Shown: positions 37,359 through 58,133, counted from the first letter of the stretch. The stretch is 64,000 nucleotides of DNA from a bacterium (GCA_027002475.1 JALWZS010000030.1:54827-118826), one strand, 5' to 3'. Numbers and translations are program-made. Notes: a model not told the origin generated them from the sequence alone.

Positions 37359-37371
37359 ATAGCCATACATT

Positions 37372-39089: not shown

Positions 39090-40155
39090 ATTTTAGTATT
39101 TTCTCATATAGCTTTAGGTAGTTTTTTGCCATTGCTGTGGTCGAGAAATGTTTTTCTACATGTTTACGGCAGTCACTGCGCTTTATGGTGTCGATTTTAT
39201 TTAGCAATCTAATCCAAGTACGCATATTGTTGTCTTTAGCGATAAATCCAGTCTTTCCATCCTTAACTATTTCAGGGACAGAGCCTCTGTTGGTTGCAAT
39301 CACAGGTGTTCCTGATGCCATTGCTTCAATCATAACCAAACCAAACGGTTCCTCCCACCTTAGTGGCATTAAAAATGCATAAGCGTTACTGTAAAGTTTA
39401 ACTAACTCTTTTTTAGACTGTTGTCCTAGGTACTCTATCTGGTCGCCTAAGAATGGTTTAATTGTTTTATTGAAAAAATCTTCGTCTCCAGGATAATATG
39501 AACCAACAATTTTAAGCTTCATACCAGACTTTAATGCAACGCGCACTGCAATGTCTGTTCCCTTGTTTGGCATAATTCTACCTACAGTAAGTAAATACTT
39601 ATCAGGGGTGCCACCAAACTGCCAATGGTCAATGTTTGTGCCGTTATATACGGTTCCTGCCCATTTTACTTTGGGTCTGGGTTTGCGCTGGCTGTAGGTG
39701 AGTGAGGCTAAGTGTAAGTTGCTAAAACGGTTATACTCGTGCAAGATTTTATAGGCATCGTCGGTTAAAGGATCATGAATAGTTGCCAGTACTGGTAATT
39801 TCATTTGTATTGGAGCATAGTCTAAAATGCTAAACGGTCGTGCGTGTGAGTGGAATATGTCAAATTCATTTTCCTGCATGTACCTAAATGCCTGAGCAAG
39901 CATTAGGTTCTCATAATGGTAACTTGCTGTCGGGTGGTTATACTTTTTATAAATCTTAGGCGAGCTAAATGGCAGCATGTTAAACGTTTCCAAATTCGCC
40001 TTGGTCTTTGTGCCAATAGGAGCAAAGAATGTGACATTGTGCCCTAGATTAGTTAGTTCATCAGCTAATGTTCCGGCAATAGTCATGTTGGCATAAATTA
40101 CTTTTTTGGGTACTGGATAAATCAAGTTGTTAGTGCAATAAATACCAATTTTCAT
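39082..40155 (-). CDS. GT4 (group 1) glycosyltransferase
   Basis: EPFGLVMIEAMASGTPVIATNRGSVPEIV. Confidence 0.85.
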   Translation of the reverse strand: MKIGIYCTNNLIYPVPKKVIYANMTIAGTLADELTNLGHNVTFFAPIGTKTKANLETFNMLPFSSPKIYKKYNHPTASYHYENLMLAQAFRYMQENEFDIFHSHARPFSILDYAPIQMKLPVLATIHDPLTDDAYKILHEYNRFSNLHLASLTYSQRKPRPKVKWAGTVYNGTNIDHWQFGGTPDKYLLTVGRIMPNKGTDIAVRVALKSGMKLKIVGSYYPGDEDFFNKTIKPFLGDQIEYLGQQSKKELVKLYSNAYAFLMPLRWEEPFGLVMIEAMASGTPVIATNRGSVPEIVKDGKTGFIAKDNNMRTWIRLLNKIDTIKRSDCRKHVEKHFSTTAMAKNYLKLYEKILKYA

Positions 40156-41246
40156 TTTTCTATGAGTTTGTAGTAGAGCTCTTCGTATTTATCTACCATT
40201 TTAGCGGCAGAGAAATTGTCTACAAATCGTTGTCTTGCCTGCTCTCGATTTAGTTTATCTACCACGTTTATTTTTTCTGCTAGTTCGTCTATTGTTTCTA
40301 CTAAAAATCCAGAGACTCCATCTTCAATAATTTCTGGGAGTGCACCACGTTTATTTGCAATGACGGGAGTGCCAACGGCAAGCGATTCTATTGCAACCAA
40401 ACCAAATGGTTCATCCCACTGAACTGGCATTAGTGTTGCAGTGGCTTTCTTTAAAAACGCTTTTTTTTGATGATTATCAAGAGGTCCCAAGTACTCAACT
40501 TGCTGGGAGCTTAGATATGGTTCTACTTCTTCTTTAAAGAATTTAATACTTGCCTCGTCATGGTCATCTATTGGTCCAGCTATTTTTAGTTGCTTATCGG
40601 TTTTTAGTATTGCTTGAATTGCTTGCCCTACGCCTTTAAATCCACTTATGTAGCCTAAGTATGCAAAGTAATTTCCAGGTTTCGTTGAATACTCATGCCA
40701 TTCTTGTAACGGTAGCCCATTGTGTATAACACTTGATGGGCGTCCAACATGCTCTTGTAACATTTTCGCTTGGAATTCACTTACGGAAACGACGTGCGCA
40801 TTAAAATCTTTATTAACTACGTATTTATGGTAGCTCGGGGGAAATTCATTGCGAAGACTTAGTTCAAAAGCTACTGGATGATGCATTGTCGTGACAACTG
40901 GTGTTGGAATAAATCCAGCGTATAGGTCACTTTCAAAGTATGTATGATCATGGATAATGTCAAACTCTTTGTATTTAGAATACGCTTTTTTAGCAGCTAA
41001 ATGTGTGTACCAGCCAATATCTCTCACTTGAGATGCTTTGTCACGGCTTACCGCTACTGGCCAAACAGGTTCGATCCGCGCTGACACTTTAGAGTCTGCG
41101 CTGCCAAAGAGCGTTACATTGTGCCCTCTAGCGGCCAATTCTTCAACTAGATAATAAACCATTTGCTCTAAACCTGCTTTATTGATCGGCGGAACCGATT
41201 CATAACAGTTAGTTACTTGTGCAATGTTTAATGAGCGTTTATTCAT
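40152..41246 (-). CDS. GT4 (group 1) glycosyltransferase
   Basis: EPFGLVAIESLAVGTPVIANKRGALPEII. Confidence 0.85.
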   Translation of the reverse strand: MNKRSLNIAQVTNCYESVPPINKAGLEQMVYYLVEELAARGHNVTLFGSADSKVSARIEPVWPVAVSRDKASQVRDIGWYTHLAAKKAYSKYKEFDIIHDHTYFESDLYAGFIPTPVVTTMHHPVAFELSLRNEFPPSYHKYVVNKDFNAHVVSVSEFQAKMLQEHVGRPSSVIHNGLPLQEWHEYSTKPGNYFAYLGYISGFKGVGQAIQAILKTDKQLKIAGPIDDHDEASIKFFKEEVEPYLSSQQVEYLGPLDNHQKKAFLKKATATLMPVQWDEPFGLVAIESLAVGTPVIANKRGALPEIIEDGVSGFLVETIDELAEKINVVDKLNREQARQRFVDNFSAAKMVDKYEELYYKLIEK

Positions 41247-42469
41247 CGTTGTTCGAGGTCAGGGAACGTTGCTGTATACTTCTTGTAAGAATTTTCGTAT
41301 TCTTTGTATTTTTCTTGTGGCTTACTAGACCAGTTGTATTGCCACATTTTTTTTATAAGCGTTGTATATAGCTCTTCTGCTTGTGCTTTGTCTTGATTAC
41401 TTATGGGTAGCGTTCGGATTGACTTTATTAACTGTGTTGCACCTGCTTCGACAATCTCCGGGTTCCACCATGGCCAGTTAGAAAGCCAATATGGGTGACA
41501 AGAAGAAAGACCTTTATCAAGATGCTTTTCAGCAGAACTGTACTTTAAATCAATGTCTTCAGTTGGTTTGTTTATAGATAGCAGATGGGTTGATGCAAGA
41601 TCGGCTAGCTCCCAATATAGTTGTTGAAGTTCGTTATCACTGTCTTTCCATAGACTAAAAGGGTTATTGGGGGTTGGGCTATAAATCTCCCCAGACACCC
41701 AACTAGAATCAAGTATCTCTGTTTCCACCTTTGTAAACCCGTGTTGGTTGGAAACTTCTGAAAGCTGTTTTATTGCGATAGTGGGGTTTTTGTGAACATC
41801 GAACAGGAAGTTAAGTCTCTCGGTGTAATGATGGCCAAAGATTTCAACATCGCTAACCGAAACTATGGTGTTATGACTAGCGTGTTGACTTAGCCAGTCT
41901 GCAAATTTTTCGACGGATAATACCCTTGGGAAAGCTCTAAGAATGTTGGTAACATTCCTTGATGAGACAATTAGCTTATACGAGTCGATCTGGATAAATG
42001 GCTCTACGAGACTACTGTCTTTAATAGCATTACTATCGATGAGGATCTTAGCTCCTAAGCTACTTAATTTGCGAGTAACTTCTTGGTTGACAGCTAGCTC
42101 TGGTGGGTAAATGACATCTATTGGGCTTGTTTGCATAAAGTATTCAATAACACCGCGGTTGTATTCTAGTTGCCGTAAGTAAATTTCGCTTGTAGTGAAG
42201 GGGAGCAGTGGGTGATATAAGGGGGAATTGACAAATTCTAATTGTTGACTTTGCACGAGCTTTCTTGCCAACTTAAAAAACTCACTTTTTTCAATTCGGT
42301 CTAGCTGTAAAATTAAGGACCCGCTTATGTTAACAGTAAGCTTAAGGTCAGGATGGTCTAACAATCGTTTCATAAATGGGATATAACTAGACTCTGTTAC
42401 TTGTTTTACAATTGAGTCTTTTTGTGTGGGCGGTTGGTAGAAATGTAGTACTGGCGACCAGTTGAGCAT
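41243..42469 (-). CDS. GH57-family alpha-glucan-active enzyme (second copy)
   Basis: N-terminal LHFYQPPTQ. Collinear similarity to 37372-38535. Confidence 0.7.
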   Translation of the reverse strand: MLNWSPVLHFYQPPTQKDSIVKQVTESSYIPFMKRLLDHPDLKLTVNISGSLILQLDRIEKSEFFKLARKLVQSQQLEFVNSPLYHPLLPFTTSEIYLRQLEYNRGVIEYFMQTSPIDVIYPPELAVNQEVTRKLSSLGAKILIDSNAIKDSSLVEPFIQIDSYKLIVSSRNVTNILRAFPRVLSVEKFADWLSQHASHNTIVSVSDVEIFGHHYTERLNFLFDVHKNPTIAIKQLSEVSNQHGFTKVETEILDSSWVSGEIYSPTPNNPFSLWKDSDNELQQLYWELADLASTHLLSINKPTEDIDLKYSSAEKHLDKGLSSCHPYWLSNWPWWNPEIVEAGATQLIKSIRTLPISNQDKAQAEELYTTLIKKMWQYNWSSKPQEKYKEYENSYKKYTATFPDLEQR

Positions 42470-44391: not shown

Positions 44392-44769
44392 TTACTGCAA
44401 CTCTACGGTTGCACCAGCTTCTTCTAATGTAGCCTTCATTTCTTTAGCGTCATCTGCCTTTACATTTTCGGCAACTGTTGCTGGTAAAGAATCTGTAAGA
44501 TCCTTAGCTTCCTTTAAGCCAAGATCTGGCTTAATGCTACGGATTGCCTTAATCACATTTATTTTCTTGTCACCTGCGTTTGTAATGACAACATTGTATG
44601 CAGACTTTTCTTCGGCTTCAGCACTTTCTCCCGCTGCAGGAGCCGCCGCTACGGCTACTGGTGCAGCAGCAGATACGCCGAATTTATCTTCTAGCATTTT
44701 CACTAACTCTGAGACCTCAAGAACGTTGAGTTCTTCTATTTGCTTTACGATATCTTCGATTTTTGCCAT
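44392..44769 (-). CDS. rplL: 50S ribosomal protein L7/L12
   Basis: MAKIEDIVKQIEELNVLEVSELVKMLEDKFGV... with an Ala-rich hinge. A terminator hairpin ATCCCCCAAAAGGGGGAT lies at 44348-44365. Confidence 0.95.
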   Translation of the reverse strand: MAKIEDIVKQIEELNVLEVSELVKMLEDKFGVSAAAPVAVAAAPAAGESAEAEEKSAYNVVITNAGDKKINVIKAIRSIKPDLGLKEAKDLTDSLPATVAENVKADDAKEMKATLEEAGATVELQ

Positions 44770-45302
44770 TACTGCTCACCCCCTTTAGCTATTCTAATTT
44801 GATCTAGGGTATAAACTAAACTTCGATTTATTCCAGATAAAGTACGAACTAATCCTGAAACAGGGGCTTGGATTTGACCAAGTAGTTTGGCGATTAGCTT
44901 ATCATAACTTGGTAATTTTGCTATCTCATCGATTTTTTGAGTAGGCAATAGTTCGTTATTGATGATACCTCCCTTAATAGAAACTTGTGGGTTAGCTTTA
45001 ATAAATTCTGCTAACTTTTTAATTGGAGATATTATGTCTTCGTGTAAGTAAAGAACTGCAGTAGGGGATTTTAATACGTCAATACCATGTACGCTGTTTA
45101 AAATGTTGCTGCGCATGAGTGCTATACGAAGTAAGGTGTTTTTTACAATGTGGAAAGTCCCACCTAGCTCTTCAACTGCGTTGCGCAACTGTTCTATTTC
45201 TCTTGCTGAAGCTCCTTGGTAATCTACAAATACTAAACCTTCTATTTCCGCAAGGGACTCAGTTAATTTCTTGACTTGTTCAATGTTTTTCTTATTTGGC
45301 AT
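44769..45302 (-). CDS. rplJ: 50S ribosomal protein L10
   Basis: Position and composition match L10. Start overlaps the rplL start region. Confidence 0.9.
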   Translation of the reverse strand: MPNKKNIEQVKKLTESLAEIEGLVFVDYQGASAREIEQLRNAVEELGGTFHIVKNTLLRIALMRSNILNSVHGIDVLKSPTAVLYLHEDIISPIKKLAEFIKANPQVSIKGGIINNELLPTQKIDEIAKLPSYDKLIAKLLGQIQAPVSGLVRTLSGINRSLVYTLDQIRIAKGGEQ

Positions 45303-45408
45303 TTTATCCTGCGTTGGCTTCTTGTTACAAAATTTAAGCTATGCACCAACGGTCTTTGGTATCCGAGTCGAATTATACAAGAATCCTTGATATTCGCAAG
45401 CATGCGAC

Positions 45409-45834
45409 TTACTCGACAACCTCGATGCCCATGCTACGTGCTGTACCCTCAATTATTTTCATCGCTGCTTCAACACTTTTTGCGTTGAGGTCATCCTTTT
45501 TAAGCTCGGCGATTTCTTGTACTTGTGCTTTTGTTACCGTGCCAACCTTTTCTACCGGTACGGCGCCGCTGCCCTTTTCTGCACCAGCTGCTTTGAGTAA
45601 TAAAGAGCTTGCTGGTGGGGTTTTTGTTACAAATGTAAAACTATTATCTTCGTATAGAGTTATTTCGACAGGAATAATCTGACCCTTTTTGTCTTGCGTT
45701 GCAGCATTGTATTGATTACAGAACTCCATAAGTGGAATACCGTGCTGACCTAATGCTGGACCAACTGGTGGTGCTGGACTCGCCGTCCCAGCAGGAAGGT
45801 TTAATTTTATGATTGTTTTTACTTGCTTTGCCAT
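45409..45834 (-). CDS. rplK: 50S ribosomal protein L11
   Basis: [33 protein letters not shown]. Confidence 0.95.
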
Positions 45835-45843
45835 GGGTTTGGA

Positions 45844-46389
45844 TTATAGTTTACCGACCTGTAAGAAATCAAGCTCAACTGGAGTCTCTCGGCCAAATAT
45901 TGAAACTAGTACTTTTATTGTTCCCTTAGCCTTGTCGATTTCATCGACCGTTCCGACAAAGTCAGCAAACGGACCATCTGTAATCTTGACGCCTTCTCCA
46001 ACCGTAAACTGTGTTTCAAACTGTGGAGCATCTTGTTTGGCAAAGTTCTTGATTGCTTCAACTTCTTTCTCTGATAAAGGAACGGCTTTATCTGCAGTTC
46101 CAACAAAAGCGGTTACGCCTGGAGTTCCTTTGACGACGCTGATAATTTGGTCATTAAGTACTGTCTTGATAAGGATGTATCCAGGGAACAAGCGTTCTGT
46201 TACTTCACGGCGCTTGCCATCTTTGACCTCGATTTTTTGTTGTGTAGGAATAAAAATCTCAAGGATCTGGTCCTCCATATTAAAAAATTTCAGCCTCTTT
46301 TCGAGGTTGATTTTAACTTTTTGTTCATGACCGCTGTATGTATGTACTACGTACCAGCGAGGTTCGTTTTGTTTATTTAATACGCTCAT
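45844..46389 (-). CDS. nusG: Transcription termination/antitermination factor NusG
   Basis: RWYVVHTYSGHEQKV NGN domain and C-terminal KOW. Confidence 0.95.
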   Translation of the reverse strand: MSVLNKQNEPRWYVVHTYSGHEQKVKINLEKRLKFFNMEDQILEIFIPTQQKIEVKDGKRREVTERLFPGYILIKTVLNDQIISVVKGTPGVTAFVGTADKAVPLSEKEVEAIKNFAKQDAPQFETQFTVGEGVKITDGPFADFVGTVDEIDKAKGTIKVLVSIFGRETPVELDFLQVGKL

Positions 46390-46394
46390 AATGT

Positions 46395-46577
46395 TTACTG
46401 TATAAATTCACCAAGTATTTTAGTAAGACCGTAGTCGATGATTCCAACGTAGGCCCCAACAATAATCGTAGTTATTATAACAACTATTGTCATCCTTATA
46501 GTTTCATCTTTACTTGGCCACGTGACCTTCTTAAGTTCGCTTCGAACTTCCTCAAAAAACTTGATGACGCCTTTCAT
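46395..46577 (-). CDS. secE: Preprotein translocase subunit SecE
   Basis: 60-aa single-TM protein directly upstream of nusG. Confidence 0.85.
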   Translation of the reverse strand: MKGVIKFFEEVRSELKKVTWPSKDETIRMTIVVIITTIIVGAYVGIIDYGLTKILGEFIQ

Positions 46578-46662
46578 TTCTGGTTGATTTTACCACGAGA
46601 CTAAGTATAATGACAACGTGTACGTACTGTAAAAAGTAGCAGTTGGTTATATGTAAAAATAA

Positions 46663-49494
46663 ATGCCCCAGTTTAAAAATACTTCGAATAAACCAGTCGA
46701 TATACATCAATATAGAAGCCGATTGCAATCTCTTGTGAACAAAAAATCTAATGCATCTACACCTCAATCGGCGAGTACAAATCTTGTTTCACCAAAACCG
46801 ACGGCTCCTAAAACTCCACCTAAAGCACGACTTGCTCAAGTTCATCACAAGGCACCTGCAACCAATGCGTCGTCACAAAAAGGCCCTAGCGGTGTAGCAC
46901 AAAAGGTCCAACCTGGGCTAAAACCAAGGCGGTTACCACCTAAGCCAAGATCTACTATGAAGGTACCATTAACTAAACAAGTTGGTACAAACCCTGCTAC
47001 GTCTTCGTTGACTAGCTCTAACAGCATTATAAAAAGAACACCTGCACCTATTAAAAATGTTAAGTCGGTTGTTACTAAAAGTAAGCCCGTTGCTCCAGTC
47101 AAAAAGAGTAAACCTGCTGTTGTGGCCCCTCAGGTTAAAGCTCCAGCTGAGCCTAAACAGACAAAGCCCGAGTTTACAAAACTTAATCCTAAATCTATCG
47201 AGTATTGGCATAAGGCGTGGAATTACTACGTCGATGGGGCAACTATAAAAGATCCTAATCGGGAAAAAATAATACTGCAGGTTTCGCTTCCTCAAGATAA
47301 CGAGATAGAGATGGCAGCAGCGGAGCAAATGTATGCTTCTTTGGTTAGCCTTGGAAATAGACCTGGCAAGGTTTTTGAAATTATTGTGAGTTTATTCCCT
47401 AAACTCGAAATACTGTTTAAAAATCATGACGATGCTATCTCTTTTGAAATTGCTGCAACTGAAAAGTTGATAAGGTTTCAGATAGTAACTCCAGTTGAGT
47501 GGCGTGATTTTATTGAGCGTCAAGTGCACGGTGCGTACCCAGAAGCACATATTGAACCAATTCAGTATAAAGACTTTATCCCAGAAACTGGGAATATTCA
47601 CTTTGCTCAATTACAGCTAAAAGGACGTGCCTTTTATCCGATACGACTACTTGAAGATTTTGAAACAGATCCATTAAGTAGTCTTACGTCTACCGTTAGT
47701 AAACTAATGGATGGTGAGCGTGCAATTGTTCAGTTTCTACTTCAACCAGCAGATGATTCGTGGCGTAAACGGGGGCAGAGGTTCGTACAATTAGCACAAG
47801 CGCCACCTAAGGGTGAAAACGAGCACAAGCCACAAATCCCACAATCTGTTATAGAAGGCGTCTCTAACAAAATATTAAAACCTGGTTTTAGGACTGTTAT
47901 CAGGATAATGGTGGAGTCTCCGAATGACTTTAATGCTCAGCAAACTCTTAGAAATATTGTAGGTTCGTTTGATCAGTTCTCACAACCACACTTAGCGATA
48001 TTTAAATCTAAAGGGGATAAAAAGCTAAAGGCAAAAACGGTAGAGGAATTTATAACCAGATCGTTTCCACGGTTTGGTAACTATCCAATATTAAACACAC
48101 TTGAGCTAGCAACCTTATATCACTTCCCAAATAAAGAGATAAAAACCCCAAGGATTGATTGGTTGCGAGTCCGCAAAAGCGCTCCACCTACGAATATACC
48201 ATCAGAAGGGCTGTATTTGGGTAAAAGTGAGTACAGAAACGAGGTCGTAAAAATTAGGATAAAAAGAGATGACAGGCGCCGCCACATGTATATCATTGGA
48301 CAAACTGGTTCAGGTAAATCGCAGTTTTTGCAATTTATGGCAACGCAGGACATTATGAATGGTGATGGGTTAGCGTTTATTGACCCGCATGGAGATGTTG
48401 TCGAAAACCTACTGCAGGTAATTCCTAAAGAACGAGTAGAGGATGTAGTTTACTTTAATCCTGCAGACACAGAACGCCCGATGGGGCTTAATATTTTAGA
48501 CGTAGAAGGCGAGCAAGCGCAGCACATGACCGTCAATTCGTTTATTGAACTTTTGTATAAGCTGTATGACCCAAATAGACAGGGAATGGTTGGACCACAG
48601 TTGGAGCGAGCAGTTCGTAACGTTATGTTAACAGCAATGGCAGAACCTGGAAATTCTATGGTTGAGGTTTTAAGGCTTTTAACAGACACGAAATATGCGG
48701 AGAAAAAGATACCATTAATTAAAGACCCTGTTGTTAAATCGTACTGGGTTGATCAGATTGCAAACACGAACGAGTTTCATAAGTCAGAAACCTTAGGTTA
48801 CTTTGTAAGTAAATTCGATAGGTTTGTTACTGAAAAGCTAATGAGAAATATTATTGGTCAATCTAAATCTGCATTTGATTTTAGGGATATTATGGATAAT
48901 AAAAAGATTCTTTTGATTAACCTTAGTAAGGGTAAGATTGGGGAAGCGAACAGTACCTTCTTAGGACTTCTTCTGGTTCCGCGGATACTAGCAGCGGCGA
49001 TGGCTAGGGCTGATATGCCAGAGGAGGAGCGTAAAGACTTTTTCTTGTATGTTGATGAGTTTCAAAACTTTGCCACACCAGACTTTGCGGAGATCTTAGC
49101 AGAGGCAAGAAAGTATCGCTTGGCGCTCATTGTTGCTAACCAATACATTGCACAGATTCAAGAGGATATCAGAAATGCAGTCTTCGGAAACGTTGGTTCG
49201 ATGTTTTGCTTTAGGGTTGGTGCAGATGATGGTGAGCATATGGAAAAGCAGTTCCAACCAGTGTTTACTCAAGCGGACTTAATTAACCAAGCGGTAGGTG
49301 AAAGCGTAGTTAGGCTCTTGATTGATGGACAACCATCTAGGCCATTTTCATTTAGAACCGATTGGCCGGCTATGCAAGCAGTAAAACGTAACCCGAAGAT
49401 GGCAGAAGTTATTAAAGAAATTAGCCGTCTTAAATATGGGCGGGATAGAGCAATTGTTGAACGTGAGATTGCAACACGTGCAGGATTCGAATAA
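46663..49494 (+). CDS. VirD4/TraD-like type-IV coupling-protein ATPase (FtsK/HerA superfamily). It has a 170-aa Lys/Pro/Thr-rich disordered N-terminal tail and an uncharacterised middle domain.
   Basis: Walker A YIIGQTGSGKSQF. Walker B FLYVDEFQNF. Arginine-finger region EARKYRLALIVANQYIAQI. TATAAT lies about 55 bp upstream. Confidence 0.7.
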   Translation: MPQFKNTSNKPVDIHQYRSRLQSLVNKKSNASTPQSASTNLVSPKPTAPKTPPKARLAQVHHKAPATNASSQKGPSGVAQKVQPGLKPRRLPPKPRSTMKVPLTKQVGTNPATSSLTSSNSIIKRTPAPIKNVKSVVTKSKPVAPVKKSKPAVVAPQVKAPAEPKQTKPEFTKLNPKSIEYWHKAWNYYVDGATIKDPNREKIILQVSLPQDNEIEMAAAEQMYASLVSLGNRPGKVFEIIVSLFPKLEILFKNHDDAISFEIAATEKLIRFQIVTPVEWRDFIERQVHGAYPEAHIEPIQYKDFIPETGNIHFAQLQLKGRAFYPIRLLEDFETDPLSSLTSTVSKLMDGERAIVQFLLQPADDSWRKRGQRFVQLAQAPPKGENEHKPQIPQSVIEGVSNKILKPGFRTVIRIMVESPNDFNAQQTLRNIVGSFDQFSQPHLAIFKSKGDKKLKAKTVEEFITRSFPRFGNYPILNTLELATLYHFPNKEIKTPRIDWLRVRKSAPPTNIPSEGLYLGKSEYRNEVVKIRIKRDDRRRHMYIIGQTGSGKSQFLQFMATQDIMNGDGLAFIDPHGDVVENLLQVIPKERVEDVVYFNPADTERPMGLNILDVEGEQAQHMTVNSFIELLYKLYDPNRQGMVGPQLERAVRNVMLTAMAEPGNSMVEVLRLLTDTKYAEKKIPLIKDPVVKSYWVDQIANTNEFHKSETLGYFVSKFDRFVTEKLMRNIIGQSKSAFDFRDIMDNKKILLINLSKGKIGEANSTFLGLLLVPRILAAAMARADMPEEERKDFFLYVDEFQNFATPDFAEILAEARKYRLALIVANQYIAQIQEDIRNAVFGNVGSMFCFRVGADDGEHMEKQFQPVFTQADLINQAVGESVVRLLIDGQPSRPFSFRTDWPAMQAVKRNPKMAEVIKEISRLKYGRDRAIVEREIATRAGFE

Positions 49495-49523
49495 AAACCT
49501 CATACTTATAGTATACTTTTGGC

Positions 49524-50036
49524 ATGTCATATGTAGTTAAACCGTTCAAGCACCTTTTAAAGGTAATCCTAGACGTCTATAAAAAGATGATAGTGAAAAA
49601 GCATATGGAGATTAACTTTTGGGTTTTGTATATGTTTATTCTTGGCTTTGTAGGTTCACGATTTGTAGTTAAGATCTTTCCAGAGGCTGCTTTGATTATA
49701 AATGGGATTCATGTTCACCATTTCGCTTATGGATTTATGCTACTTGCAGCGATAGGCTTTGCAGCGTTAAATGATGTTCACCGGAAGCATCCACGTTTTT
49801 TAGGCAGTGCATATGGTCTTTCTTTGGGTATTGCGTTCGACGAATTTGGAATGTGGATACTCCTTGACGATGATTATTGGGTGCGTCAATCATATGATGC
49901 AATTATGGTAATAGGTGCGTTTTTGGTGTCGGTTGTTTACTTCTCGGAGTTTTGGAGAATTTTATTCAAGAAATCTATTGATGTGTTAACCAAGGAAATT
50001 AAGTTTTCAAAAAAGAAGCATTGGTGGCAGGGGTAG
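49524..50036 (+). CDS. Hypothetical 4-TM membrane protein, probably co-transcribed with the coupling-protein-like ATPase
   Basis: Hydrophobic helices. The stop lies 12 bp inside the 3' end of the opposite-strand tRNA-Trp. Confidence 0.45.
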   Translation: MSYVVKPFKHLLKVILDVYKKMIVKKHMEINFWVLYMFILGFVGSRFVVKIFPEAALIINGIHVHHFAYGFMLLAAIGFAALNDVHRKHPRFLGSAYGLSLGIAFDEFGMWILLDDDYWVRQSYDAIMVIGAFLVSVVYFSEFWRILFKKSIDVLTKEIKFSKKKHWWQG

Positions 50037-50100
50037 AGGGATTCGAACCCCCACTAACGGTTTTGGAGACCGTTGTGCTAGCCGTTGACACTATACCCCT
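50025..50100 (-). tRNA. tRNA-Trp (anticodon CCA)
   Basis: AGGGGTA...TACCCCTGCCA acceptor, anticodon loop CTCCAAA. Canonical position between rpmG and secE. Confidence 0.9.
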
Positions 50101-50293
50101 TAGATGAGACCCATTATAACTTAAGAAATCATTGGTGTATATCGTTGTTTGGAGATGTGGGTACTAACTTGTTATCGCTAACGTTGACTATTTGGTAATT
50201 GATTAACTTTTTAGGGTTAGCCTTTATGAAAAAGACCGGACTGGCGTTGCAATGCCGATATATATCGGAAGAAGCGTCTCCACTAGAAAAAGG

Positions 50294-50500
50294 CTAGTTG
50301 TTTTTTGGTATCTTTTTCTCGATGTGGGGAGTGTGTTTTTGGCACTGCGGGCAATACTTCATTAGGGGCTCTTCTTCGGTGAATTTGTATTCTGCTTTTA
50401 CCTTTTTGCGAATGTGGTAGTTTTGGCTATTGCATACACTACAATGCAAAGCCATTGGCACTACTTTTTTCTTCTTTTTGCTTTTGCTTGCTTTAGCCAT
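50294..50500 (-). CDS. rpmG: 50S ribosomal protein L33 (zinc-ribbon type)
   Basis: CSVCNSQNY...CPQCQKHTPHIEKK and a Lys-rich N-terminus. Confidence 0.85.
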   Translation of the reverse strand: MAKASKSKKKKKVVPMALHCSVCNSQNYHIRKKVKAEYKFTEEEPLMKYCPQCQKHTPHIEKKIPKNN

Positions 50501-50693
50501 AACGTTAATTTAACTTTTGGATTATAGCATATGGTTGGGTAGCTTTCGCGTGAGCACTCTTGCGTCATCTAAATCGTACGTAGGGTAAAAGGTAGTCCTT
50601 GCTTCATCCTTCGCTAAAGCTTCGGACGACGAAAAAGCTACAGACTACACTCTCATACTTAACAAGTTCCGGTATTTTCTTTGCAGTCGTAAA

Positions 50694-50787
50694 AGGGAGT
50701 TCACCTTCGCCAAAGGCTACGGTGAACACCCCTACTTCGTCTAAACCGCACGCAGGGCAAGCCCTACGTAGCTTTAGCGAAGTAGGG
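50694..50787 (-). repeat. Structured ~95-bp element immediately 3' of tRNA-Thr(GGT), copy 1 of a tRNA-Thr-associated repeat
   Basis: About 90% identical to 55353-55476. Nested hairpins CCCTAC...GTAGGG and GTTCACC...GGTGAAC. Confidence 0.7.
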
Positions 50788-50864
50788 TGGAGCCGTTGGG
50801 CGGATTCGAACCGCCGACCTCATCCTTACCATGGATGCGCTCTAACCAACTGAGCTACAACGGC
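50788..50864 (-). tRNA. tRNA-Thr (anticodon GGT), CCA encoded
   Basis: GCCGTTG/CAACGGC acceptor, anticodon loop ATGGTAA, T-arm GGCGG-TTCGAAT-CCGCC. Confidence 0.9.
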
Positions 50865-51216
50865 GTGTAGATACAAACGTTAATTTATCACACAAATGTA
50901 TTATTGAGAATGGGTAGCAAGACGTTTGATGTACGCGCCTGTTGTCAATTACCTTATTGTCATTGCGATACCGCTTGTAGCGGGAGAAGCAATCCCAAGT
51001 CACGAAAGATCGCCACGTCGCCTTGCTCCTCGCGATGACGAGTCGATTATCAAATAACTACTTCGCAGTTTATCGCAATGACGAATCGATTGTCACGTCG
51101 CTTTGGCTTCTCGCAATGGACGCATGCAAGGTATGCTTACAGGCGAAACTACGTTGCTGTACGATATCACTCTACGTTATTGTGAGGAGAAAACTAGAGA
51201 TTTGCGACGTGGTAAT

Positions 51217-52332
51217 CTATCTTGTTATCGCGTAGCTTTCGACTTCTTCTTTTAAGCTCTTAGCTTTTTCGTTTTGCTTGAAGTAATCTTGTACCGGTGC
51301 GAGGTATGAGTTTATGTAATCTGTTAATGCTAACTTTAAGTCGAGTGGGTGAACTCCTTTTTGTGCAAATAGTTCTTCAAGTTCTTTGTAATTTTCAAAC
51401 TCTAGGCTTCCGCCGTGTTCTGGCTTACGGTTAATAACGACCTTTTCTTCTTTTGCAAAGACCAAATACTTAAAGTACTCAAGGATTGGGTTTTCTTCGA
51501 TAATTCCTTCTGGGCACCATGCGTTTTTTATTTTCTTTGCTACATCATCTGGGGTATCTGTCATAAAGATTGCACTATTTGGGTTTGATTTGCTCATCTT
51601 AAGCCGAATTGCTCGATCTGTACTCGTCTCACCGTCCGTTTTGTCCGTTGGTGGGAGTAGTCCAAGCAACATGTGGTGGCTAATGACAATAGGCTTTGCA
51701 AAACCTAATTTGGGTGCAACCTCTCTTGCGAGCATATTGACCTTTCGTTGATCCATGCCAAGCTGTGCGACATTAGCTTTTAGCATGAATACGTCGGTTG
51801 CTTGCATTAGGGGATAGAGGATTTGGGAAGCTGTTAGAGTATCCGATTCTTTCCTGCCCATAATCTCAACCGTTCGAATAACTCGTGGTAAATTCGTCTC
51901 GACCGCAATTCGCATCACTAAATCCCAATATCCTTCTTGTTTAACTAAATCGCTTGCCCATACAAATTCGATGTTTTCTGTGCTCATGCCAGATGCTTTC
52001 CAAATCTCGATAAAATACTGTCCAACCTTTTTGATTTTTTCTAAATCGCCGCCGATTTTGTGGTTTGCCCATGCGTGCCAGTCTGCTACAAGTACTTTGA
52101 ATTTAAATCCTGCCTTAATCATTTTATTAATATTGATTGTTCGAAGAATGCCTTGAGGAAGATGAATTCTGCCGCTTGGTTCAAAACCATCGTATGCAAT
52201 TAGCTCTTTACCTGACTTTAATAGCTTGAGCAACTCTTCTTCAGTAACAATTTCCTCTCCGACTTGTTTAACAAGGTCTAGTCTTTCCTTTATTGATAGT
52301 CCCTTAACCATTGATTTATTATACACTGGCAA
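51217..52332 (-). CDS. tyrS: Tyrosyl-tRNA synthetase, archaeal/eukaryotic type, with a degenerate HIGH motif (HLPQ)
   Basis: AYDGFEPSGRIHLPQG aligns with archaeal GFEPSGKIHLGHY. KMSKS is present. Length 371 aa. Confidence 0.8.
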   Translation of the reverse strand: MPVYNKSMVKGLSIKERLDLVKQVGEEIVTEEELLKLLKSGKELIAYDGFEPSGRIHLPQGILRTININKMIKAGFKFKVLVADWHAWANHKIGGDLEKIKKVGQYFIEIWKASGMSTENIEFVWASDLVKQEGYWDLVMRIAVETNLPRVIRTVEIMGRKESDTLTASQILYPLMQATDVFMLKANVAQLGMDQRKVNMLAREVAPKLGFAKPIVISHHMLLGLLPPTDKTDGETSTDRAIRLKMSKSNPNSAIFMTDTPDDVAKKIKNAWCPEGIIEENPILEYFKYLVFAKEEKVVINRKPEHGGSLEFENYKELEELFAQKGVHPLDLKLALTDYINSYLAPVQDYFKQNEKAKSLKEEVESYAITR

Positions 52333-52427
52333 GTAGTGTAGAGGGTGTGAGATGTTGTGTACTTATTGTTTAAATGTTTGATGTTGTGTTGCTTCTTGTG
52401 GGAGTTTATAGTATCTTAATAAAGACG

Positions 52428-52529
52428 CTCTTATAAAGAGAGGTGGAGGGACCGGCCCGATGAAGCCTCGGCAGCCTGCAAAAGCAAGGTGCCAATTCCG
52501 GCAAGGTGAAGACCTTGAAAGATGAGAGG
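52428..52529 (+). promoter_or_regulatory. SAM-I (S-box) riboswitch aptamer in the metK leader
   Basis: CTCTTATAAAGAGAGGTGGAGGGACCGGCCCGATGAAGCCTCGGCAGCC...AAGGTGCCAATTCCGGCA...GATGAGAG matches the S-box consensus. Expression-platform terminator at 52547-52569. Confidence 0.9.
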
Positions 52530-52546
52530 GATAAAGAGAATACTCC

Positions 52547-52569
52547 AAGCCCTTTCAGAGGGCTTTTTT
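52547..52569 (+). terminator. Riboswitch-controlled intrinsic terminator (GCCCTTTCAGAGGGC + T6)
   Basis: Perfect 5-bp GC stem followed by TTTTTT, about 35 nt before the metK start. Confidence 0.8.
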
Positions 52570-52604
52570 ATTAGCCCTCAAATGATTAGTAAAGGAAAAC
52601 AAAA

Positions 52605-53765
52605 ATGTTATTTACGTCAGAATCAGTTACACAGGGGCATCCAGACAAGGTCTGCGATCAAATCAGTGATGCAGTTTTAGATGCTTGTTTGGCGCAAGAT
52701 CCTAACTCTAGGGTAGCGTGTGAGGTTGCGACCAAAACAGGGTTTGTCATTTTAATGGGTGAGATTACAACTAATGCTCGAGTTGATTTTGAGGAAATTG
52801 CTAGAAATGTCCTTTTAGACATTGGCTATGACAGTAGTGAAGCGGGTTTGGATGGTAATACCTGTGGAGTTTTAACATCAATTAGCAAACAATCTCCAGA
52901 TATCGCACGAGGTGTAAATTCGGCCAAAGATGAGAGAGAAACTTTAGGTGCAGGAGATCAAGGTTTGATGTTTGGCTATGCTTGCAACGAAACAGAAAAC
53001 TTAATGCCACTTCCCATCGAGCTTGCTCATAAGCTAGTAAAAGGTTTAGCCAACGCAAGAAAATCAGGTGAACTTCCATGGCTTAGACCAGATGGCAAAA
53101 GTCAGGTAACTGTTGAATATGATGACAACGGGCGACCAAAACGAATTGACACGGTCCTAATTAGCACTCAGCACTCGCCAGATGTCAGTCAACAAGAGAT
53201 TCGTGAAGCTTTGATTGATAAGGTAATTATGCCGCAATTGCCAAAAGACTTAGTTGATGAGAGTTTAAAGATTTTGGTTAATCCAACTGGGCGTTTTGTG
53301 ATTGGTGGTCCTGCTGGAGATGCTGGGCTTACTGGTAGAAAGATTATGGTTGATACTTATGGGGGGATGGCAAGGCATGGTGGGGGAGCATTTTCCGGGA
53401 AAGATGCAACTAAAGTTGACCGGTCTGCGGCGTATGCTCTTCGCAAGGTCGCTAAAACAGTTGTTTCTAAAGGAATGGCAGATAGGTGTGAGGTGCAAGC
53501 CGCTTATGCAATCGGTGTAGCAAAACCTGTTAGTTTGTTTGTTGAAACTTTTGGTACAGGGAAGGTAAGTGATAAAGAGATTTTAGAGTTTATCAAAAAA
53601 GAGTTTGACTTAAGACCGGGAGCGATTATTCAAGATTTAGGTCTTAGAAAGCCTATTTTTAGGCCCCTAGCTACATACGGTCACTTCGGAAGAGAGGACT
53701 TGGGGGTGGAGTGGGAGAAGGTCGTAGAGTGTGAATCAACTGTGAGGGCGACAAATGTTGTTTGA
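52605..53765 (+). CDS. metK: S-adenosylmethionine synthetase
   Basis: [26 protein letters not shown] and GGGAFSGKD. Confidence 0.95.
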
Positions 53766-53821
53766 TTAGTTCTTTATTCTCTACTTCAGTACTGCGAAAC
53801 AGTGTATTTCTACTTGTAAGT

Positions 53822-54733
53822 TCAGCTAGCTTTAGTTACAACTTGCTTTATCAAAAACATTACGTAGTCAATATCTAGCTCTGTGTTGAGTTGATACTCT
53901 GTTTCACCACTTGTCCATCTACTCATACTTGATACATCTCTAAGTTTCTTCTCGGGGTCCTTAAAGTGTTTAACATGCATTGGTAAAGAAATCTTTAGAC
54001 CCTGTTTCTGGGGTACTATCTCTAATATCCGATCGTTGTTATTGTATACTTTAATGTATTTCTTAGTGGCTGAGATATTGGGTTCAAACAGATTTTGTAT
54101 TCTTTGTGCAAGGATCTCGTATAGTTCCTTGCTATGTGTCCAATCATTTTTAAACAAATCAGTTATTGTATAGGTTTTAACTTCTTTTGCGACAGATTTA
54201 ACTATTCTGCTTTTTGTTACTGTCTGAATTGACTCACTAGAGTCGACAGCCTTAATTTGATAAAAATCGATTGTGTTGTTTTCATACATTTTTGCCTCCC
54301 ATAGTTCGATAGGTAAATCTTTGAAATTGATTGCTGCTGTTTGGTGATGAGTGAATGAGTCAGCGATGAAAATAACTTTGGATTGAGTCCAGTCTACATC
54401 ACCTCGCGTAAGGTTTTTCTTATTATGCTCATTGTATTCAAGAATGAAATCAGCCTTGTTGTTAAGCATTAAAGCGAGGTAGGCGTATCCTTGGTCGATG
54501 ACGCTAAAACTACGTTCCTTTTTGTATTCAATTATAACGAAGGAATTTGTCTCTGAATCAAATGCGAGAGTGTCGATACGTAAATTGTGCAGTTGGAATT
54601 CATGGGCTACAAATTCCAGATTAAAAACGCTTTTAAGATTTTTCTCAACTAAAGTTTGAATATTTTTCTCGAGGTTAATTTTCTTCTTGGGGATGGGAGT
54701 GAGAGTTGTATGTTTTATACTAAACAAAGGCAT
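53822..54733 (-). CDS. Hypothetical protein with an N-terminal PD-(D/E)xK restriction-endonuclease-like core
   Basis: LRIDTLAFDSETNSFVIIEYKK (D...ExK) preceded by an EF..H helix. No further family assignment. Confidence 0.45.
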   Translation of the reverse strand: MPLFSIKHTTLTPIPKKKINLEKNIQTLVEKNLKSVFNLEFVAHEFQLHNLRIDTLAFDSETNSFVIIEYKKERSFSVIDQGYAYLALMLNNKADFILEYNEHNKKNLTRGDVDWTQSKVIFIADSFTHHQTAAINFKDLPIELWEAKMYENNTIDFYQIKAVDSSESIQTVTKSRIVKSVAKEVKTYTITDLFKNDWTHSKELYEILAQRIQNLFEPNISATKKYIKVYNNNDRILEIVPQKQGLKISLPMHVKHFKDPEKKLRDVSSMSRWTSGETEYQLNTELDIDYVMFLIKQVVTKAS

Positions 54734-54804
54734 TTACTTATATTTTACCATTATTCTAAGTTGTAAAACGTTGTTATTGTTTTTGGTTGTTGGAGGGAGA
54801 AAAG

Positions 54805-54892
54805 TGGTCCGGGGGGTAGGATTCGAACCTACGTAGGGATTAGTCCCGCGGGGTTTACAGCCCCGAGCAATTGACCACTATGCGACCCCCGG
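54805..54892 (-). tRNA. tRNA-Tyr (anticodon GTA), long variable arm
   Basis: CCGGGGG/CCCCCGG acceptor, anticodon loop CTGTAAA, variable stem GGGA-CTAA-TCCC. 88 nt. Confidence 0.85.
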
Positions 54893-55001
54893 TAGTTTAA
54901 CGTATAGATTATAAGCAAAGAATGCTAATTTATAAACTAGCAACTTCAAATTATAGCATTATGAGAGATGGGGAGCGCTTCGATTTAGAACAAAAGTGCT
55001 T

Positions 55002-55238
55002 TTAAAGTAAATGTTTATTTCTAAAAGCAATCCCAGAGCCTGTTTTAAGATAGGTCTCAAACTTTCGTGCTGTAGACTCTTTCTCGAATGCTAAGTACGC
55101 AACAAGATGCACTGGTAAGAATCGCTTGGTTGAAACAACATTTCCTCTTTTGTGTTCAGACAATCTCTGTCGCAAGTTAGAGCTAAAGCCTGTGTAATAT
55201 TGCCCATTAGCTAGTTGTAAGATGTAAACGTAATACAT
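55002..55238 (-). CDS. GIY-YIG nuclease-domain protein (UPF0213/YhbQ-like)
   Basis: MYYVYILQLANGQYYTGFSSNLRQRLSEHKRG. Confidence 0.8.
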   Translation of the reverse strand: MYYVYILQLANGQYYTGFSSNLRQRLSEHKRGNVVSTKRFLPVHLVAYLAFEKESTARKFETYLKTGSGIAFRNKHLL

Positions 55239-55352
55239 CGTTAGAACGCGTACTGTTAACTATAATAGCTTAGAAGCTATAGGTAGGCAATACTCTCATA
55301 CTTCGCTATGTAAACTTCGTACAGTATGCTTATTCAACAAGTTTCTTGTGGG

Positions 55353-55476
55353 GGGAGCTCACCTTCGCCTCCTCCTTCGCTAATGCTACGGAGGACAAGA
55401 GAAGGCTACGGTGAACACTCCTACTTCGTTTAAATCGTACATAGAGCAAGCCCTACGTAGCTTTAGCGAAGTAGGG
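55353..55476 (-). repeat. tRNA-Thr-associated repeat copy 2 (3' of tRNA-Thr TGT), with an extra ~30-bp internal segment
   Basis: Shares ...GGCTACGGTGAACAC.CCTACTTCGT.TAAA.CG.AC..AG.GCAAGCCCTACGTAGCTTTAGCGAAGTAGGGTGGAGCCG with 50694-50787. Confidence 0.7.
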
Positions 55477-55553
55477 TGGAGCCGCCTCGGAGATTCGAAC
55501 TCCGGACCTACGGTTTACAAAACCGTCGCTCTGACCAACTGAGCTAAGGCGGC
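55477..55553 (-). tRNA. tRNA-Thr (anticodon TGT), CCA encoded
   Basis: GCCGCCT/AGGCGGC acceptor, anticodon loop TTTGTAA. Confidence 0.9.
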
Positions 55554-56994: not shown

Positions 56995-58062
56995 TTAGCT
57001 TTGCGGTATCTGAACTTTATTAAGCAGAGAGATTTGTTCTAACGATATTCCACATCCGCGTGCAACTGTGGTTAATGGGTCTTTGTCTATAAATACCGGC
57101 ATTTGAGTTTCGTTGGCAATTCTTTTATCAAGCCGTCTAATTAAAGCTCCGCCACCAGTTAGAACTATTCCTTGAGAGTAAAGGTCGGATATTATTTCTG
57201 GAGGGGTTTCTTCAACCGTGTCTTTAATGTTGTCGACAATAAGTGAAATTGCAGGGTTTAATGCTTCATAAAGATCGTTTTCTGATATAGTTATCTCGCG
57301 CGGTAAGCCCGTTCTTAAGTCGCGACCTCTGATCGTTGCGGTTTCTGGCTCGCTTTCGGTATTAGGCAGTGCAGAGCCAATTTGTATCTTAACCTTTTCG
57401 GCTGTTCGCTCTCCAATTATTAAGTTGTGACGTTGCTTAACCCAATCAACAATGGCCTTGTCCATCTCGTCACCTGCAACACGAATTGATCTGCTAACAA
57501 CTATTCCGCCAAGACTAATAACTGCCATCTCTGATGTGCCACCACCAATATCTACAACCATACTTCCAGATGCTTCTTCAACTGGAAGCCCTGCGCCAAT
57601 CGCTGCTGCCATTGGTTCTTCAATTAAATAAACTTTTCTTGCGCCGCTTCTTCTTGCTGCGTCAATGACTGCTTTTCTCTCAACCTCGGTTATCCCAGAA
57701 GGGATTCCAACAGTCATTCTAGGGCGTGGAATTTTATAGCTAAACGGTTTTCTGGTTTTGTGTACCTTTTTAATAAAATAAGAGAGCATTGCTTCTGTTG
57801 CATCAAAGTCAGAAATGACACCGTCTCTTAGGGGACGAAGAGCAATAATGTTTGCTGGAGTTTTACCAATCATCTTTTGCGCATCCGTTCCGACTGATAA
57901 AACGTCTTTGGTTTTTTTATGTATTGCTACAGTTGAGGGCTCGCGTATTACAATGCCTTTTCCTAGTACAAAAACTAACGTGTTGGCGGTCCCTAAATCT
58001 ATACCAATATCATGTGTGAAATATTGCCAAATGTTGTCGATTAAAGAATTGTTACTGCTCAT
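56995..58062 (-). CDS. mreB: MreB rod-shape protein (paralogue 2, next to mreCD-PBP2)
   Basis: IGIDLGTANTLVFV...DIGGGTSEMAVISLGG. Confidence 0.9.
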   Translation of the reverse strand: MSSNNSLIDNIWQYFTHDIGIDLGTANTLVFVLGKGIVIREPSTVAIHKKTKDVLSVGTDAQKMIGKTPANIIALRPLRDGVISDFDATEAMLSYFIKKVHKTRKPFSYKIPRPRMTVGIPSGITEVERKAVIDAARRSGARKVYLIEEPMAAAIGAGLPVEEASGSMVVDIGGGTSEMAVISLGGIVVSRSIRVAGDEMDKAIVDWVKQRHNLIIGERTAEKVKIQIGSALPNTESEPETATIRGRDLRTGLPREITISENDLYEALNPAISLIVDNIKDTVEETPPEIISDLYSQGIVLTGGGALIRRLDKRIANETQMPVFIDKDPLTTVARGCGISLEQISLLNKVQIPQS

Positions 58063-58133
58063 GAATATCAAAATGATTATACAGCACTATCTTTATCTAT
58101 TTTTATTTTGGGATGACTATATAATGATGGTGC

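Follow-up and report, generated by a model that had tools for sequence, protein, structure and literature searches.

In most bacteria the genes rpmG, tRNA-Trp, secE and nusG follow one another without a break. In a 64,000-nucleotide stretch of bacterial DNA (GCA_027002475.1 JALWZS010000030.1:54827-118826; hereafter the window), this order is interrupted between tRNA-Trp and secE by two open reading frames (ORFs) on the opposite strand (positions 46,578 to 50,036), one for a 943-aa ATPase resembling the coupling proteins (T4CPs) of type IV secretion systems (T4SSs) and one for a small membrane protein. The locus therefore raises the question of how such an ATPase came to stand within a housekeeping cluster and what it does there. 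An initial annotation of the window had read the block as an insertion and had suggested a role in DNA uptake or export, or in a minimal conjugation or secretion apparatus. We find that the ATPase gene is an old, vertically inherited chromosomal core gene and not a mobile insertion. It belongs to a very large family that is restricted to Patescibacteria (the candidate phyla radiation), and the window protein is the version found in one WWE3-related clade, in which the membrane anchor typical of the family is absent.

Both the ORF list and ARAGORN agree with the gene layout as first described: two plus-strand ORFs, of 943 and 170 aa, lie between minus-strand secE and tRNA-Trp, and the shorter one and the convergent tRNA-Trp gene overlap by 12 nt at their 3' ends (Table 1). 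The GC content is uniform (0.38-0.44) throughout the block and its flanks. A repeat search found neither att-like repeats nor a tRNA-Trp duplicate at the secE border, only chance-level repeats of 12-18 nt, and the window ORF list contains no integrase or relaxase. The same divergent junction between secE and the ATPase gene is present in every clade relative examined (L001, L081, L082, L083, L086, L087, L088 and L089), with ATPases 54-71% identical to the window protein and, upstream, the usual order GH57, APH, His_Phos, (MerR), rplL, rplJ, rplK, nusG, secE. The arrangement is therefore ancestral to the clade. A scan of one genome per species placed the gene elsewhere, not beside secE, in 78 other loci, so the secE-side position is an old, lineage-specific rearrangement; in a neighbour-joining tree the window clade is monophyletic and sister to WWE3 sequences of the type with a transmembrane (TM) helix. 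The only part that varies among clade relatives lies 3' of the ATPase gene, where we find the membrane protein (window and L086), HicAB (L087), a PIN-type pair (L088) or, in L081, thymidine kinase and a deacetylase followed by rpmG-tyrS, with rpmG ~3.7 kb beyond the ATPase gene. Occupation of the same position in related genomes at uniform GC is what the initial annotation had named as the mark of an ancestral arrangement; the eight clade loci share the position, and the GC content of the window block is uniform. For annotation purposes the locus should be taken neither as a mobile element nor as evidence of conjugation.

By sequence and by predicted structure, the C-terminal half of the protein is an ATPase domain of the VirD4/TrwB/TraD type. 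The Walker A (GQTGSGKS), Walker B (VDEFQNF) and ARKYR...ANQ motifs, from which a coupling protein had first been suspected, are indeed present, and their key residues (G546, T548, G549, G551, K552, D798, E799, R816, K817 and Q827) are invariant in alignments of 19 and of 75 homologues. Among the profile searches proposed at the outset, TrwB_AAD_bind (PF10412; 35.6 bits against a gathering cut-off of 20.5), DUF87 (29.9 against 23.2) and TraG-D_C (PF12696; 22.5 against 22) all pass, as does T4SS-DNA_transf (PF02534; 35.9 against 20.1); FtsK_SpoIIIE (PF01580) does not, scoring 17.5 bits against 24 over the P-loop only, and Pfam scans of the window protein and of 19 members gave no match to the FtsK gamma domain. 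All 19 of these diverse members match TrwB_AAD_bind, DUF87 and TraG-D_C, and four match AAA_10, which scores 14 bits against 27.5 on the window protein. The top NCBIfam matches are the VirD4-like CD1115 (51 bits, residues 534-860) and then TraD families. VirB4 families score 13-22 bits (TIGR00929, 13.9 against a cut-off of 643; CD1110, 13.2), the DNA-import ATPases CedB and CedD give weak P-loop matches, and the HerA equivalogs reach 12-16 bits against cut-offs of 800-970, so that assignment to a HerA-type repair helicase, which had been considered from the start, does not follow from the profiles. The highest-scoring profile in any library is mad8 of the MADS defence system (PADLOC; 66.5 bits, E 7e-19, residues 519-881), and HerA and DndH profiles also match weakly.

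Comparison with proteins of solved structure points the same way. Sequence searches of the PDB, whether with the single protein (phmmer, TrwB at 1e-6) or with a family profile (DotL 7e-7, TrwB 2e-6; DptH appears at 0.019), give TrwB and DotL as the best matches and do not detect TrwK/VirB4. An AlphaFold model of residues 170-943 (mean predicted local distance difference test score, pLDDT, 91.3; predicted TM-score, pTM, 0.83) places an all-helical insertion between the Walker A and Walker B strands, at the position of the TrwB all-alpha domain. TrwB superposes on the model over ~410 columns in Foldseek (TMt 0.61, root-mean-square deviation (rmsd) 5 Å), and HerA structures and Cag-beta (8dol) are also among the fold matches.

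The middle of the protein, left uncharacterised by the initial annotation, corresponds to Pfam family PF26449, named DUF8128 in the annotation of a relative locus. The identical public protein (P0001) carries precomputed PF26449, PF10412, PF01935 and PF02534; our local Pfam scan of the window protein did not report PF26449, and that copy of Pfam may predate the family. When residues 170-516 were modelled alone (pLDDT 93, pTM 0.91), the domain consisted of repeated beta-alpha-beta units, and its only significant matches in the PDB were 14 TrwK/VirB4 chains from the R388 T4SS (E 1e-7 to 8e-5), the next match being an unrelated oxidase (8e-4). VirB4 also provides the best matches of the full model, collinear over ~890 columns (E 5.6e-17), with moderate TM-scores (0.41-0.46); the large rmsd (~18 Å) reflects a different relative orientation of the two domains. 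DUF8128 is thus predicted to fold like the N-terminal domain of VirB4, which would give a protein built like VirB4 with a coupling-protein-type motor.

The closest public proteins come from candidate division WWE3, and more distant relatives (~48% identity) from Levybacteria, Shapirobacteria, Saccharimonadia and Pacebacteria. Among the matches listed, all 120 homologues carry precomputed PF26449 together with TrwB_AAD_bind, DUF87, T4SS-DNA_transf and TraG-D_C. Counting one genome per species, at least 599 species genomes contain a relative, all of them in Patescibacteria-type contexts. A profile of DUF8128 only retrieves 4,826 clusters at 50% identity with E <= 1e-3 (866 with E <= 1e-30), and in the profile matches the domain is always N-terminal, in proteins of ~800-1,100 aa. 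The family plan is an N-terminal membrane anchor, DUF8128 and a VirD4/TrwB-type P-loop ATPase with its all-helical insertion. A second copy of the ATPase was sought in the window and none was found; tandem or nearby second copies do occur elsewhere (L042, 819 and 858 aa, at 1260-3527 and the next ORF; L053, 790 and 1,073 aa), and one locus (L045) has an ORF of 1,568 aa. Among the binchicken records of metagenome-assembled genomes (L001, L003, L006, L007 and others) the taxonomic labels look unreliable: several read Gammaproteobacteria, Bdellovibrionales, Bathyarchaeia or Saccharibacteria on gene content typical of Patescibacteria, the DUF8128 ATPase included.

The family has most probably been seen before under another description. 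Of 3,035 Patescibacteria genomes in a recent survey, 2,918 (96%) contain VirD4-type 'T4CP homologues', 5,713 in all or ~2 per genome (Quinonero-Coronel et al., 2025; PMC12102498). By abundance and Pfam content this set is most probably the DUF8128 family. The second copies noted above agree with about two homologues per genome; the surveyed genes are rarely near virB4, and an exapted function has been suggested for them, the survey stating that exaptation 'cannot be ruled out'. The two accounts differ in that the DUF8128/VirB4-like domain, the upstream partner gene and the anchorless fused form treated below are not described in the survey. Among the supplementary rows of the survey that were listed, neither WWE3 nor the genome of P0009 appears, and no paper that we found mentions DUF8128. 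Already known are the family, at survey level, and the Pfam DUF entry; what appears to be new is the structure assigned to DUF8128, the partner gene that recurs upstream and the anchorless fused variant tied to relocation beside secE.

In most lineages the protein starts with one or two TM helices, and a hydrophobic 19-mer precedes DUF8128 in 101 of 114 homologues. By contrast, none of the 12 window-clade proteins (P0001-P0012) has a TM-like segment there, and in the window protein the maximum Kyte-Doolittle value before DUF8128 is 0.15, with no hydrophobic 19-mer. At the corresponding site lies an amphipathic Trp-rich helix, modelled with pLDDT >90 and consistent with packing on DUF8128. Its counterpart in the alignment is SSFRWLAEWCL in P0011, with the shared pattern S-x3-W-x3-W (SIEYWHKAW in the window protein, SSFRWLAEW in P0011), and in other homologues the juxtamembrane end of their TM helix. 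The rest of the N-terminal tail had been described as histone-H1-like. For the window protein this is accurate: of residues 1-175, 26 are K and 26 are P, the net charge is +30, and no segment is hydrophobic. The composition is not kept in orthologues. Across the 12 clade members the tail ranges from 79 to 202 aa and from -14 to +30 in net charge; the 11 orthologues span -14 to +9, leaving the window protein as the only one with a strongly basic tail. Conserved among clade members are the Trp helix and a ~28-residue motif at the extreme N-terminus, MPQ[FY].N ... ES+.RLQ.L.N, which direct reading without statistics also finds in P0002, P0006, P0007, P0008 and P0009. Because the basic composition is absent in the orthologues, the tail is best described as a variable, fast-evolving disordered linker that is strongly basic in this one genome, and not as a DNA-binding module kept by selection across the clade. 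When the tail alone was searched against the database there was no match, not even to the identical public protein, presumably through low-complexity filtering.

The source of the tail is suggested by a small gene that accompanies the ATPase elsewhere in the family. Of 81 loci, 50 have a same-strand ORF of ~90-320 aa immediately 5' of the ATPase gene, the spacing between the two ranging from -22 to +129 nt. These ORFs are of low complexity and rich in P, Q, A and E, and many end in a conserved Trp-rich helix (e.g. LPLTDDQIVQGL..SWRWLAQWCLRRLKQ). Searched with a profile of this partner C-terminus, P0010, P0011 and P0012 match in their N-terminal extensions with E values of 1e-12 to 1e-14, against 0.5 or worse for shuffled controls. 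In this sister group, therefore, the extension is, as judged from the profile, demonstrably the partner protein fused in frame in place of the membrane helix. The same profile gave no significant match to the tail of the window protein. Yet the Trp motif aligns, and the window protein shares with the sister group its missing anchor, its place beside secE and a common clade; we infer from this that the window tail has the same origin.

What, then, would the protein do? The reading that we favour, with a probability of about 0.6, is that it is an anchorless, hexameric member of this vertically inherited Patescibacteria family which feeds or recruits substrate to an envelope channel. By analogy with TrwB, VirD4 and VirB4, six subunits would form a ring on the cytoplasmic side of the membrane, where ATP would drive the recruitment of a macromolecular substrate, DNA or protein, or its feeding into the channel. 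The most plausible channel is the monoderm-type T4SS that Patescibacteria encode on the chromosome. DUF8128 would serve as the docking module, as the N-terminal domain does in VirB4, and the Trp-rich helix may dock on it at the former site of the membrane helix. The window-clade protein would then be tethered by protein contacts, through the fused partner or DUF8128, and not by a helix of its own.

Several observations weigh against this proposal. The window protein has no membrane anchor to bring it to a channel. We found no virB4, virB6, pilin or relaxase gene in the window, where the 40 ORFs of ~200 aa or more were scanned, or near the gene in 80 related loci. In the published survey, just 148 of the 5,713 T4CP homologues lie near virB4, a T4CP homologue is present in 2,918 genomes against 2,417 for VirB4, and the homologue of Southlakia epibionticum is dispensable for epibiotic growth, for which the T4SS is essential (PMC12102498). 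The equation of the surveyed set with the DUF8128 family is itself drawn from abundance and Pfam content, and the fusion origin of the window tail from its position and the S-x3-W-x3-W alignment, with a profile score that is not significant.

The lack of linkage, the wider spread than VirB4 and the dispensability in S. epibionticum are the reasons why we keep a T4SS-independent role seriously in play. On this alternative, a minority possibility of some substance, the protein is an exapted, membrane-proximal nucleic-acid translocase of the FtsK/HerA superfamily, employed for example to take up host DNA or RNA or, in the manner of FtsK, to segregate chromosomes or resolve dimers. The genomic neighbourhood is in keeping with it. 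When neighbours from 80 loci were clustered by BLAST, the upstream small ORF was the only recurrent functional neighbour and the other recurrent ones were housekeeping genes (dnaX, cysS, smpB, ribonucleotide reductase); 17 of the 80 loci have an XerC/D-type recombinase no more than three genes away. The weak CedB and CedD matches and the dependence of Patescibacteria on host nucleic acids (bioRxiv 10.64898/2026.06.21.733656) also speak for it. An FtsK-like function is opposed by the sub-threshold FtsK_SpoIIIE score and the missing gamma domain, and the separate annotation of ftsK in TM7x (PMC10768705) weakens the idea of an FtsK replacement. The Xer neighbours are convergent and confined to related Microgenomatia and Dojkabacteria, and may reflect inherited gene order. 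As for DNA uptake through the competence machinery, comEA, comEC and dprA are in the window, as first reported, but belong to separate operons 19-21 kb (comEA/comEC) and 12 kb (dprA) from the ATPase gene and have no linkage to it; moreover, deletion of comEC in S. epibionticum already abolishes competence. The Xer-type tyrosine recombinase gene is downstream and usually convergent in many Microgenomatia and Dojkabacteria loci (L003, L007-L009, L015, L017-L019, L021-L023, L029, L032, L037, L039 and L040), which could be inherited order or an FtsK-like hint.

Two further possibilities draw on the likeness to VirB4. The DUF8128 ATPases could be a surviving VirB4/VirD4 hybrid that stands apart from the canonical T4SS and works as a general motor for macromolecule import, of host nucleic acids for example. 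We consider this doubtful; were it true, the WWE3 clade would show such a motor working without its own anchor, tethered through a fused partner. Alternatively, and in our view improbably, the protein is a paralogue of the VirB4-type assembly ATPase that powers pilus or channel assembly by pilin extraction and docks through its VirB4-like N-terminal domain. The structural comparisons speak for such a paralogue, since the best whole-model matches are to TrwK/VirB4 across both domains, DUF8128 alone finds only VirB4 chains, and length and two-domain order are those of VirB4; the N-terminal TM helices of most homologues may, we presume, be likened to VirB3-VirB4 fusions. The motor itself argues otherwise: it scores 51 bits with VirD4-like CD1115 against 13-22 with VirB4 families, AAA_10 is detected in just four of 19 members, the family profile finds DotL and TrwB in the PDB and not TrwK, and the T4CP helical insertion and TraG-D_C motif are present. 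Patescibacteria also already have a monophyletic VirB4 (PMC12102498).

On the insertion reading, the block would be a recently acquired part of a conjugative or integrative element that was targeted to tRNA-Trp and brought its coupling protein along. The break in an order contiguous in most bacteria, the abutment on the tRNA-Trp 3' end and the variable region downstream, with toxin-antitoxin pairs in some relatives, would suit it; the uniform GC, the lack of direct repeats, tRNA fragment, integrase or relaxase, the junction shared by eight diverged relatives and the vertical distribution of the family within Patescibacteria contradict it and make it very improbable. An anti-phage defence ATPase of the HerA, DptH or MADS mad8 type, to which the mad8 score, the weak HerA and DndH profile matches, DptH in the PDB search and the HerA fold matches might point, is hardly credible for a gene that is near-universal in one phylum and sits in stable housekeeping neighbourhoods unlike defence islands, that in the window as in relatives adjoins neither a methyltransferase nor a nuclease nor any further partner of MADS, Dnd or NurA type, and whose HerA NCBIfam scores (~16 bits at best) fall far below their cut-offs. 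In place of a mad1-mad8 operon the flanks hold secE/nusG and the small membrane protein (neighbours not searched with the remaining mad profiles), and the text of the MADS preprint gives no domain description for mad8.

The small membrane protein is probably a neighbour of the ATPase and not a partner. The initial annotation had it as a four-TM protein following the ATPase; it is there, with three or four hydrophobic segments, but besides the window a homologue adjoins the ATPase gene in L086 only. No homologue of it follows the ATPase in L001, L081-L083, L087 or L088, and in L084 and L085 homologues lie in unrelated contexts. None of its 119 homologues has a Pfam family, and the public gene call is shorter (143 aa, starting at Met28), so the true start may differ from that of the 170-aa ORF. 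We considered it as a surrogate anchor and rejected this in view of the adjacency in just one other relative.

Much of bacterial diversity belongs to Patescibacteria, which live at the expense of other cells, and how macromolecules move across their envelopes is poorly understood. Nearly every genome of the phylum encodes this ATPase family, and many encode it twice. The VirB4-like docking fold, the small partner, and a clade with a fused partner and a dropped anchor offer handles for experiments in the few tractable Saccharibacteria, and the results bear on the divergence of the T4SS ATPases VirB4 and VirD4.

Table 1. Features of the ATPase locus and its surroundings, in window coordinates.
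Feature	Position	Strand	Basis
secE-nusG-rplK-rplJ-rplL block, left neighbour, without rplA	44392..46577	-	ORFs; synteny in relatives with Pfam-annotated genes
rplL	44392-44769	-	ORF
rplJ	44769-45302	-	ORF
rplK	45409-45834	-	ORF
nusG	45844-46389	-	ORF
secE	46395-46577	-	ORF
Divergent secE/ATPase intergenic region, 85 nt	46578..46662		Sequence
DUF8128/T4CP-like ATPase gene, 943 aa, anchorless form with putative partner fusion	46663..49494	+	ORF call; start supported by the MPQF/Y..N opening that orthologues share
Conserved extreme N-terminal motif MPQFKN...YRSRLQSLVNKK, ~28 residues	46663..46746	+	Direct reading, no statistics
K/P/S/T-rich low-complexity linker ('histone-like' tail)	46747..47187	+	Composition
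Amphipathic Trp helix SIEYWHKAWNYY	47197..47232	+	Alignment; site of TM helix in other members
DUF8128 domain (PF26449), predicted VirB4 N-terminal-domain-like fold	47260..48207	+	AlphaFold, Foldseek
VirD4/TrwB-type P-loop ATPase domain	48208..49377	+	Pfam, NCBIfam, phmmer, Foldseek
Walker A GQTGSGKS, residues 546-553	48298-48321	+	Invariant in homologues
All-helical insertion, residues 617-731 (~115)	~48511-48855	+	AlphaFold model
Walker B VDEFQNF, residues 797-803	49051-49071	+	Invariant in homologues
ARKYR...ANQ, residues 815-827	part of ATPase domain	+	Invariant in homologues
Small membrane protein ORF, 170 aa, 3-4 TM helices	49524..50036	+	Hydrophobic segments
tRNA-Trp and rpmG, right-hand remnant of canonical cluster	50025..50500	-	ARAGORN and ORF list
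tRNA-Trp	50025-50100	-	ARAGORN
rpmG	50294-50500	-	ORF
comEA	25268-25921		Window ORF scan
comEC, two ORFs	25918-27051 and 27011-27910		Window ORF scan
dprA	61290-62381		Window ORF scan

The intergenic region between secE and the ATPase gene contains one promoter-like match (46584-46611, plus strand), and the count of such matches in the region does not exceed that in shuffled sequence. To its left, rplA is not in its canonical slot between rplK and rplJ, where the window has a gap of 106 nt (45303-45408); in L081, L082, L083, L086, L087 and L088 the slot is empty or holds unrelated ORFs of 84-389 aa. No L1 gene was found among the window ORFs scanned, and ribosomal protein L1 may be lost or relocated in the clade. 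On the right (50025-55553), the classical array of tRNA-Thr, tRNA-Tyr, tRNA-Thr, (tuf), rpmG, tRNA-Trp and secE is recognisable and broken at several points: an unannotated 303-aa ORF (53822-54733), metK and tyrS lie between tRNA-Tyr and tRNA-Thr(ggt), and tuf is not present.

Elsewhere in the window, comEC appears split into a Competence-domain ORF and a metallo-beta-lactamase-domain ORF that overlap by 41 nt in different frames; the pair comes after comEA and leuS, and the split could be a frameshift, a sequencing error or genuine. Two MreB paralogues (32789-33799 and 56995-58071) each score >445 bits to MreB_Mbl, the second being divergent from the adjoining mreC (58134-58922); after mreC comes the gene for a PBP2-type transpeptidase (59287-61266). 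Further paralogous pairs are two methyltransferase-domain proteins of ~490 aa each (14082-15569 and 17943-19415) and two GH57 glycoside hydrolases (37372-38535 and 41243-42469) in a glycosyltransferase-rich region (33802-41246). A 1,194-aa ORF at 20-3604 matches no Pfam family at E <= 1e-5.

The nearest known relatives of the motor are the T4CPs, VirD4, TrwB of R388, TraD, DotL/IcmO and Cag-beta. With these the window protein shares the Walker A, Walker B, RK and Q motifs, the predicted ~115-residue helical insertion, the T4SS-DNA_transf, TrwB_AAD_bind and TraG-D_C profiles above cut-off and the superposition on TrwB. It differs from them in the ~310-residue DUF8128 that precedes the motor, in having no N-terminal transmembrane anchor, in lacking linkage to a relaxase or to mating-pair-formation genes (in the window and the flanks of 80 loci), and in being encoded by a chromosomal gene that is phylum-wide and vertically inherited. 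VirB4 (TrwK of R388) offers the counterpart for the overall design, an N-terminal alpha/beta domain followed by a RecA-like ATPase, with DUF8128 alone resembling only VirB4 chains (E 1e-7) and the full model collinear with them; here the differences are the lack of any sequence-level match to VirB4 profiles or to TrwK, the moderate TM-scores, the divergent domain orientation reflected in the rmsd, and a gene that is not encoded with virB3, virB6 or virB8. FtsK/SpoIIIE differs at the motor-domain threshold and in the gamma domain. HerA shares DUF87, which passes its cut-off, whereas its equivalogs fail and no NurA nuclease gene adjoins the ATPase here or in the 80 loci. Integrative elements at tRNA genes bring an integrase and duplicate the 3' end of the tRNA at their other border; this locus has neither an integrase nor such a duplicate. 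The defining order of the DUF8128 family, PF26449 followed by a P-loop ATPase, is found in P0001, which is identical to the window protein.

For the partner, the closest parallel is CagZ of Helicobacter pylori, a small protein that regulates the coupling ATPase Cag-beta, itself one of the fold matches of the window protein. The cagZ gene adjoins that of Cag-beta. The likeness lies in the pairing of a small protein with a coupling ATPase. Unlike CagZ, the Patescibacteria partner is mostly disordered with a single C-terminal helix, and in the window clade it appears to have become part of the ATPase itself.

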